From assembly GCF_053078305.1 (NCBI RefSeq), contig NZ_CP166879.1: a stretch of 64,000 nt of DNA. One strand, given 5' to 3'. The position numbers were made by a program, and so were the translations under genes. How positions within the stretch are numbered: the stretch's first letter is position 1; each line of letters opens with the position of its first letter. The notes under the pieces are model-generated. The model was not told the DNA's origin. It was given only the letters and a program-made list of their open reading frames with translations, and did not search any database. This document shows positions 3,865-4,080 of this stretch, one piece after another.

Positions 3865-4080
3865 ATGGAACTGCATTGTCCACAATGTCAGCATGTGCTT
3901 GATCAGGATAACGGCCATGCGCATTGCCCATCCTGCGGGGAAGTTATTGAAATGAAAGCTCTTTGCCCGGACTGCCATCAACCGTTGCAGGTGTTAAAAG
4001 CCTGCGGTGCGGTAGATTACTTCTGTCAGCACGGGCATGGCTTGATATCGAAAAAACGCGTTGAATTCGTGCTGGCTTAA
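3865..4080 (+). CDS. yfgJ: YfgJ, small zinc-ribbon protein
   Basis: 71 aa, four CxxC pairs (CPQC, CPSC, CPDC, CQHGH), ATG at 3865 preceded by GGAGGA RBS. Confidence 0.85.

Follow-up and report, generated by a model that had tools for sequence, protein, structure and literature searches.

A four-nucleotide tail-to-tail overlap of the yfgJ and xseA genes of Escherichia coli at the unoccupied form of a known integration hotspot

The genes at the junction and their shared TTAA

The window analysed here is a stretch of 64,000 nt from contig NZ_CP166879.1 (RefSeq assembly GCF_053078305.1), and all positions without further specification refer to it. At the locus under study der and yfgJ follow one another on the plus strand, and xseA converges on them from the minus strand (Table 1). 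The likely start of yfgJ is the ATG at 3865, seven bases after a GGAGG (3853..3857), and its product ends in ...RVEFVLA*. The Pfam model Zn_ribbon_6 spans residues 4-68 of the 71 residues of YfgJ (E 9e-30). Across Enterobacterales the N-terminal zinc-ribbon half of the protein (residues 1-39, window 3865..3980) is hypervariable, and the C-terminal half up to ISKKRVEF is near-invariant. Differences in yfgJ expression among E. coli isolates have been associated with cis non-coding variants (2025 preprint, bioRxiv 10.1101/2025.06.10.658842). XseA matched tRNA_anti_2 and Exonuc_VII_L (E 3e-116); the Exonuc_VII_L match stops at residue 440, and the last 16 residues, which end in ...KKSRKKVH*, form a basic tail outside any domain.

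Table 1. Features of the yfgJ-xseA locus in window coordinates
Feature	Position	Strand	Description	Basis
der CDS	2324..3796	+	Upstream of and co-directional with yfgJ	RefSeq A16 1225..2697, offset +1099
Untranslated RNA past the xseA stop	3760..4076	-	Antisense to the whole of yfgJ, to the der-yfgJ spacer and to ~36 nt at the der 3′ end	
Stem-loop in the 68-nt der-yfgJ spacer	3819..3847		Core CCCTCTA-TGAATG-TAGAGGG at 3824..3843	Sequence, predicted minus-strand fold
yfgJ CDS	3865..4080	+	71 aa, double zinc ribbon	ORF list, RefSeq, Pfam
Imperfect palindrome straddling TTAA	4050..4104	Both	GAAAAAACGCGT ... ACGCGATTTTTTT	Fold prediction
TTAA	4077..4080	Both	4-nt tail-to-tail CDS overlap	Direct reading
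xseA CDS	4077..5447	-	456 aa, exonuclease VII large subunit	ORF list, RefSeq, Pfam
Untranslated RNA past the yfgJ stop	4081..4250	+	Antisense to the xseA 3′ end; C-rich, G-poor; Rho region at ~4169	
Promoter-like site upstream of xseA	5462..5489	-	TCGACT-16-TAGAAT	Consensus match only

Two further observations concern the flanks of the pair. The stem-loop in the der-yfgJ spacer has a U-tract on neither strand, and it lies within the stretch that is crossed by antisense transcription running in the xseA direction. At the other end of the locus, Term-seq 3′ ends of MG1655 were reported within xseA, 21 and 58 nt from the start of its ORF (MG1655 2634252 and 2634289; Adams et al. 2021, PMC7815308), which correspond to window positions 5427 and 5390 on the minus strand; these published ends hint at premature termination or attenuation at the xseA start.

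The initial annotation had placed the yfgJ stop TAA at 4078..4080 on the plus strand and the xseA stop TAA on the complement of 4077..4079, so that both stops fall within a single TTAA at 4077..4080. All of this was borne out. The plus strand reads GTG CTG GCT TAA from 4069 to 4080, the six-frame ORF list ends yfgJ at the same codon and carries xseA as an ORF of 4077..5447, and RefSeq/PGAP annotates the identical 4-nt overlap. In the RefSeq entry of E. coli A16, which is 99.9% identical to the window at this junction, yfgJ occupies 2766..2981 and xseA 2978..4348, again with a 4-nt overlap, and RefSeq/PGAP gives the same overlap for two further strains, 19A14 and ER1821R, the latter a K-12 derivative. 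When a 90-nt query spanning the junction was searched against 5426 complete E. coli genomes, 3667 of them had it contiguous, in single copy and with ≥95% identity. The annotation had itself named a true stop elsewhere, for instance through a sequencing or frame error, as the result that would overturn it, and such an error is excluded because the junction recurs in so many complete genomes. That the overlap is an artefact of annotation or sequencing, with one of the genes truly stopping elsewhere, has a practically negligible probability: nothing was found that speaks for it, yfgJ being merely short (71 aa), and against it stand the identical junction of these genomes, the strong Pfam matches of both ORFs, and the conservation of YfgJ over Enterobacterales, with an invariant C-terminal half. 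Two genuine opposite-strand coding genes are thus present, as judged by Pfam, RefSeq and conservation over 54 Enterobacterales loci.

Only CTAA, TTAA, CTAG and TTAG can end two opposed genes (Lillo & Krakauer 2007, PMC2174442), and the tetramer used here belongs to this set. The "palindrome" of the initial annotation is thus a by-product of the genetic code and of the overlap geometry, not a separate signal. Beyond the stop codons TTAA constrains only the third bases of yfgJ Ala71 (GCT) and xseA His456 (CAT), and the last sense codons of both genes encode tails outside the Pfam domain models. Where the window is collinear with A16, over ~50 kb, this is the sole overlap among 7 convergent pairs, the other six having gaps of 37-137 nt. 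The same survey reported 4 bp as the modal overlap length in prokaryotes, counted 58 convergent overlaps in E. coli, ascribed convergent overlaps to stop-codon mutation followed by 3′ extension, and noted that such an overlap forces terminators into the coding sequence of the partner (PMC2174442).

Another convergent junction of the window, that of guaA and yfgI, carries an insert of ~3.9 kb (8722..12653) that is absent from the otherwise 99% identical A16. It encodes two GmrSD-family proteins, of 426 aa (GmrSD_N+DUF7834) and 650 aa (GmrSD_N+GmrSD_C), whose best PADLOC matches are HEC-06 and Orf5. As judged from these domain matches, the insert is probably a type IV restriction or anti-phage module.

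Transcript ends at a junction without a spacer

It had also been claimed that there is no room for terminators between the two genes, and the sequence agrees with this: the number of intergenic bases is zero, and because there is no spacer neither gene has an intergenic intrinsic terminator. A consensus terminator/promoter scan of 3300..5700 reported no intrinsic-terminator-like site on either strand, and a search of 3000..6000 at a permissive E-value gave no match to an Rfam family.

The imperfect palindrome that straddles TTAA (Table 1) lies within both coding sequences. Its layout is A6-CGCG ... CGCG-A-U7, with U-tracts at 4098..4104 on the plus strand and at 4050..4055 on the minus strand, and its A/T runs are the Lys-Lys codons of the YfgJ (SKKR) and XseA (VKKSR) tails. 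This element could be read as a bidirectional intrinsic terminator embedded in the coding 3′ ends, which would stop both polymerases ~25 nt past the stop codons and leave an antisense overlap of ~55 nt. A hairpin with flanking A- and U-tracts is indeed predicted on both strands, and with the K-12 sequence, in which C replaces A at the equivalent of window position 4083, the fold of a 63-nt RNA beats shuffled sequence on both strands (dG -15.6 kcal/mol, z -3.0 on plus; -13.4 kcal/mol, z -2.2 on minus). Moreover, in an E. coli allele that has an island between the two genes (L063, see below) a ratA-like gene is followed by a stem-loop, and the homologous T-run in the xseA tail comes immediately after that stem-loop; for 20% of the E. 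coli genes in convergent overlaps, terminators within the coding sequence of the partner have been described (Lillo & Krakauer 2007, PMC2174442). In the window strain, however, the equivalent fold is no better than shuffles (dG -12.2 kcal/mol, z -1.3 on plus; -8.4 kcal/mol, z 0.1 on minus), and a stable GC-rich stem with a U-tract is found on neither strand: the stem next to the U-tract has only 4-5 bp and belongs to an irregular hairpin with an internal region of ~30 nt, which the consensus terminator scan did not report. When 19 other loci were folded with shuffled controls, significant hairpins were obtained only where a real spacer exists, namely in gaps of 33 nt (locus L024) and 43 nt (locus L043), and 13 other genera with tight junctions showed nothing comparable there. 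The tables of Adams et al. 2021 (PMC7815308) hold no curated Term-seq 3′ end at the junction and never name yfgJ, and the bicyclomycin (BCM)-sensitive termination that they report lies farther downstream on both strands. An embedded terminator was therefore rejected as the main mechanism, and we regard it as very unlikely; as far as the predicted folds go, the junction palindrome is probably a weak hairpin and not a functional terminator.

The further claim, that the transcripts overlap antisense at their 3′ ends, is supported by published RNA data. In the ExcludonFinder analysis (NAR 2025, PMC12288877) xseA-yfgJ is among the 165 convergent excludons of MG1655, detected in at least 50% of 58 RNA-seq sets by a criterion that consists of coverage overlap only. 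Adams et al. 2021 (Supplementary file 2, PMC7815308) list two Rho termination regions at this locus, both BCM-sensitive: 2635510 (-), described as "antisense xseA" (Rho score 3.80, p 2.3e-6), and 2635920 (+), described as "antisense der" (Rho score 11.25, p 2.6e-45). MG1655 gene coordinates were derived from the printed sequences and offsets (xseA 2634232..2635602, yfgJ 2635599..2635814, der 2635884..2637356). By our own conversion, the first region lies 89 nt past the yfgJ stop, at window ~4169 on the plus strand, and the second 318 nt past the xseA stop, at window ~3760 on the minus strand and 36 nt inside der, so that antisense transcription in the xseA direction reaches the der 3′ end. These data come from MG1655, to which the window strain is 98% identical here.

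The composition of the RNA upstream of both regions is consistent with Rho-dependent termination. In the ~170 nt that follow the yfgJ stop on the plus strand C/G is 1.3-2.3, with a peak of 2.3 at 4120-4197; for the minus strand, values of 1.4-1.6 were obtained in the 90 nt next to the xseA stop and of 1.85 at 3829-3906. The RNA is thus C-rich and G-poor on both sides, with a skew that is modest relative to the window average of ~0.97. Taken together, the published regions and this composition support termination that depends on Rho and takes place inside the opposing genes, with a complementary 3′ region of ~0.4 kb, a length that is approximate because the published Rho positions are processed ends from 800-nt comparison windows. 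A perfect 9-bp inverted repeat, CGGCTGGAT / ATCCAGCCG (4107..4115 and 4135..4143, 19-nt spacer), was also noticed in the 3′ coding region of xseA, just upstream of the published plus-strand Rho termination region.

Spacing across Enterobacterales and the two alleles of E. coli

The conservation of the junction was analysed by scanning one genome per species with a YfgJ alignment, which gave 55 loci, 54 of them from Enterobacterales; the scan returned no Salmonella, E. albertii or E. fergusonii, and their state is taken from literature only. Over the 54 loci the convergent arrangement of yfgJ and xseA is conserved and the spacing is variable. The distance from stop to stop is ≤13 nt at 15/54 loci (-143, -17, -4, +1 twice, +3, +4 five times, +5, +6 and +13 twice, where -143 is Shimwellia, -17 K. 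pneumoniae, -4 Leminorella and the two +1 cases Citrobacter), 33-110 nt at 10/54, some of which carry textbook bidirectional terminators, and 0.4-4.6 kb at 24/54, where cargo lies between the genes; at the remaining 5/54 loci xseA was not found within the flanking DNA examined. The 4-nt overlap of Leminorella is independent of that in E. coli and uses CTAA.

This variation in spacing comes from the short and variable C-termini of the two proteins: beyond the conserved ...DGWVESEV there are 7-25 variable, mostly basic residues in XseA, and beyond ISKKRVEF there are 2-6 variable ones in YfgJ. Since the spacing drifts, TTAA itself is lineage-specific and not conserved. As far as the aligned sequences tell, spacing and tails show the pattern expected from stop-codon drift at a nearly spacer-less junction. 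At two of the loci the xseA frame appears to enter yfgJ antisense, by 17 nt in K. pneumoniae (L023:3703-3719) and by 143 nt in Shimwellia pseudoproteus (L016:6083-6225); the latter may be explained by a genuine loss of the stop codon with extension of the frame, or else by an error in the assembly.

Within E. coli itself the contiguous junction is one of two states. In 1750 of the 5426 complete genomes (~32%) yfgJ is followed by sinH instead. In strain AGR6128 a segment of 11,672 bp (L063:2780-14451) precisely fills the interval from the yfgJ stop to the xseA stop, with sinH, a gene of the SinI family and an adhesin (ratA-like) gene of 8 kb. Its GC content is 52.3%, against 53-55% in the flanks, and neither terminal direct repeats at its ends nor an integrase among its three annotated genes were found. 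The hallmarks of a site-specific element (integrase, tRNA target, flanking repeats, deviant GC) are thus absent. Variable cargo does occur at exactly this junction in other strains and species, as expected of an integration site, and the xseA hotspot has already been described, with the Salmonella CS54 island, the E. coli ila (sinH-sinI-ratA) and the 14-kb island of CFT073 (PMC3091717, PMC12928451, PMC9861973). Because the site is without integrase, tRNA, direct repeats or GC deviation, exchange at the junction probably proceeds by flanking homologous recombination rather than by site-specific integration.

The ends of the occupied alleles have features of their own. In AGR6128 a stem-loop followed by a T7 run downstream of the ratA-like gene (L063:14430-14466) overlaps the xseA stop, and its T7 run is made up of the Lys-Lys codons that belong to the XseA tail. 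Between the adhesin gene and xseA of UPEC_U013 and EE72d there is a REP-like element, GCCGGATGCG...CTTATCCGG (L002:2380-2448). In other genera the slot holds protealysin plus emfourin, an MFS transporter, a PQQ dehydrogenase, catalase, an APH(6) kinase or an HSP90-like protein plus a TPR protein (loci L014, L022, L034, L041, L044, L052 and L011). The pair found in many genera is a gene for a protealysin-like M4 protease (with PLN_propep) and an emfourin inhibitor gene, on the xseA strand, and there the emfourin gene in turn ends right next to the yfgJ stop or overlaps it, by 1 nt in L014.

When the island-free allele (window 2324..7075) was compared with island alleles (L002-L005), identity was found to be ~88-95% over der, xseA and part of guaB. 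Between the two E. coli alleles it falls to 30-75% in the last ~150 nt of xseA, as read from pairwise profiles, which we preferred to a gap-free 500-nt xseA alignment that probably understates identity near the indel-rich tail, and to ~40-55% in the der-yfgJ spacer together with the 5′ half of yfgJ. Divergence between the alleles therefore climbs steeply toward the junction, far above the normal within-species level, which on sequence grounds suggests an old or imported haplotype. Distance trees were computed for YfgJ, for the der 3′ end and for each half of xseA. In them the 5′ half of K-12-type yfgJ and the 3′ end of K-12-type xseA are on long branches; island-type YfgJ groups with that of other Escherichia, and the K-12 type forms a long isolated branch.

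These data bear on a reading in which the TTAA junction is a deletion scar, left when an ancestral sinH-sinI-ratA island was lost in the K-12-type lineage and the two gene ends were fused. The position of the island, exactly between the two stops in the 1750 genomes, agrees with this proposal, and so do the occurrence of island-type yfgJ in other Escherichia species, with no xseA within 6 kb downstream, the Salmonella CS54 island, which according to the literature occupies the xseA-yfgK interval, and the grouping of the YfgJ types in the tree. In addition, left-hand homology between the alleles stops right after GCTTAA, and right-hand homology begins inside the last xseA codons. On the other hand, in island-free Citrobacter, Klebsiella, Atlantibacter, Pluralibacter, Buttiauxella and Leminorella the gaps range from -17 to +13 nt, which makes an ancestral origin of the tight junction plausible; a deletion is marked by neither repeats nor remnants; and the immediate flanks differ by 10-60% between the alleles, a divergence that fits homologous recombination of the whole segment from a diverged donor better than a recent deletion in situ. 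We therefore hold the deletion scar to be possible but doubtful. It concerns the origin of the junction only, and is compatible with the explanation of locus function preferred below.

A more speculative proposal, which we consider rather unlikely, is that E. coli has long maintained both the spacer-less and the island allele (3667 versus 1750 genomes) as ancient haplotypes, with immediate flanks as divergent as those of different genera. In this old balanced polymorphism, the presence or absence of the island would also switch the 3′-end architecture, and perhaps the expression, of xseA and yfgJ-der. Only the island-free haplotype creates the antisense overlap of xseA with yfgJ-der.

Interpretation and comparison with known systems

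The explanation that we prefer, with a probability of about 0.8, is that of an ordinary 4-nt tail-to-tail overlap between two real and unrelated genes, produced by drift of the stop codons at a near-spacerless junction and terminated by Rho in both directions. According to this model, both stop codons drift because the short tails are poorly constrained, and in the K-12-type allele the drifting stops would have met in TTAA, which is among the four permitted tetramers. A polymerase leaving yfgJ, having transcribed der-yfgJ, would then run on into xseA antisense, and a polymerase leaving xseA would cross yfgJ antisense into der. On either side the ribosome would leave at the stop, Rho would bind the C-rich untranslated RNA, and both transcripts would be terminated, with ~0.4 kb of complementary 3′ ends as the outcome. 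We infer that the arrangement is selectively near-neutral and is no regulatory device.

The competing interpretation is that the pair forms a functional convergent excludon, in which the complementary 3′ ends lead to transcriptional interference or RNase III cleavage and thereby reciprocally couple the expression of a DNA-repair nuclease to that of a ribosome-biogenesis operon. The pair does appear in the MG1655 list of convergent excludons (PMC12288877), antisense transcription from xseA covers the whole of yfgJ and reaches der, and tight spacing recurs at 15 of the 54 Enterobacterales loci. This recurrence could reflect selection for compactness or for antisense coupling, and was counted against the near-neutral view. 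However, the listing by ExcludonFinder records coverage overlap only, any spacer-less pair is expected to overlap convergently, no experiment on xseA-yfgJ was found in the literature searched, the exact geometry is not conserved, and the two genes lie 11.7 kb apart in 32% of the E. coli genomes and flank unrelated cargo in other genera. Because about one third of E. coli genomes lack the overlap, having the 11.7-kb island between the genes, antisense coupling of xseA with yfgJ/der cannot be indispensable. A regulatory excludon is hence improbable in our judgement, and the drift of stop codons with Rho-dependent termination remains the preferred account.

The yfgJ/xseA overlap is real and ordinary, and it is known at every level analysed, from its annotation and its overlap class to the transcript overlap, the Rho termination and the hotspot. 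As a discovery it amounts to little, the class having been analysed in 2007, the Rho data published in 2021 and the transcript overlap catalogued in 2025. Its value is that of a clean textbook case, in which the lack of a spacer between convergent genes moves termination, by Rho, into the coding sequence of the partner. In addition, the hotspot supplies natural alleles with and without the overlap, which could be used to ask whether antisense overlap regulates.

When the locus is set beside known systems, it matches the class of 4-nt convergent overlaps (PMC2174442) in tetramer and in modal length, with no substantive difference. With bidirectional intrinsic terminators, of which the 33-nt yfgJ-xseA gap of locus L024 holds a textbook example, it shares a palindrome of A-tract, GC stem and U-tract centred between convergent genes, but the stem in the window is short and irregular, lies within both coding sequences and is without mapped 3′ ends. 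It resembles Rho termination in untranslated antisense RNA (PMC7815308) in its BCM-sensitive regions 89 and 318 nt past the stops and in the excess of C over G upstream of them; unlike dedicated 3′ UTR terminators, both Rho terminators fall within coding DNA of the opposing gene. Among convergent excludons (PMC12288877) xseA-yfgJ is listed explicitly, by coverage overlap alone, whereas a functional excludon is defined by reciprocal repression and RNase III processing. Finally, unlike the occupied CS54/ila site, the window has no island, and its junction represents the unoccupied form of the same xseA hotspot (PMC3091717, PMC12928451, PMC9861973).
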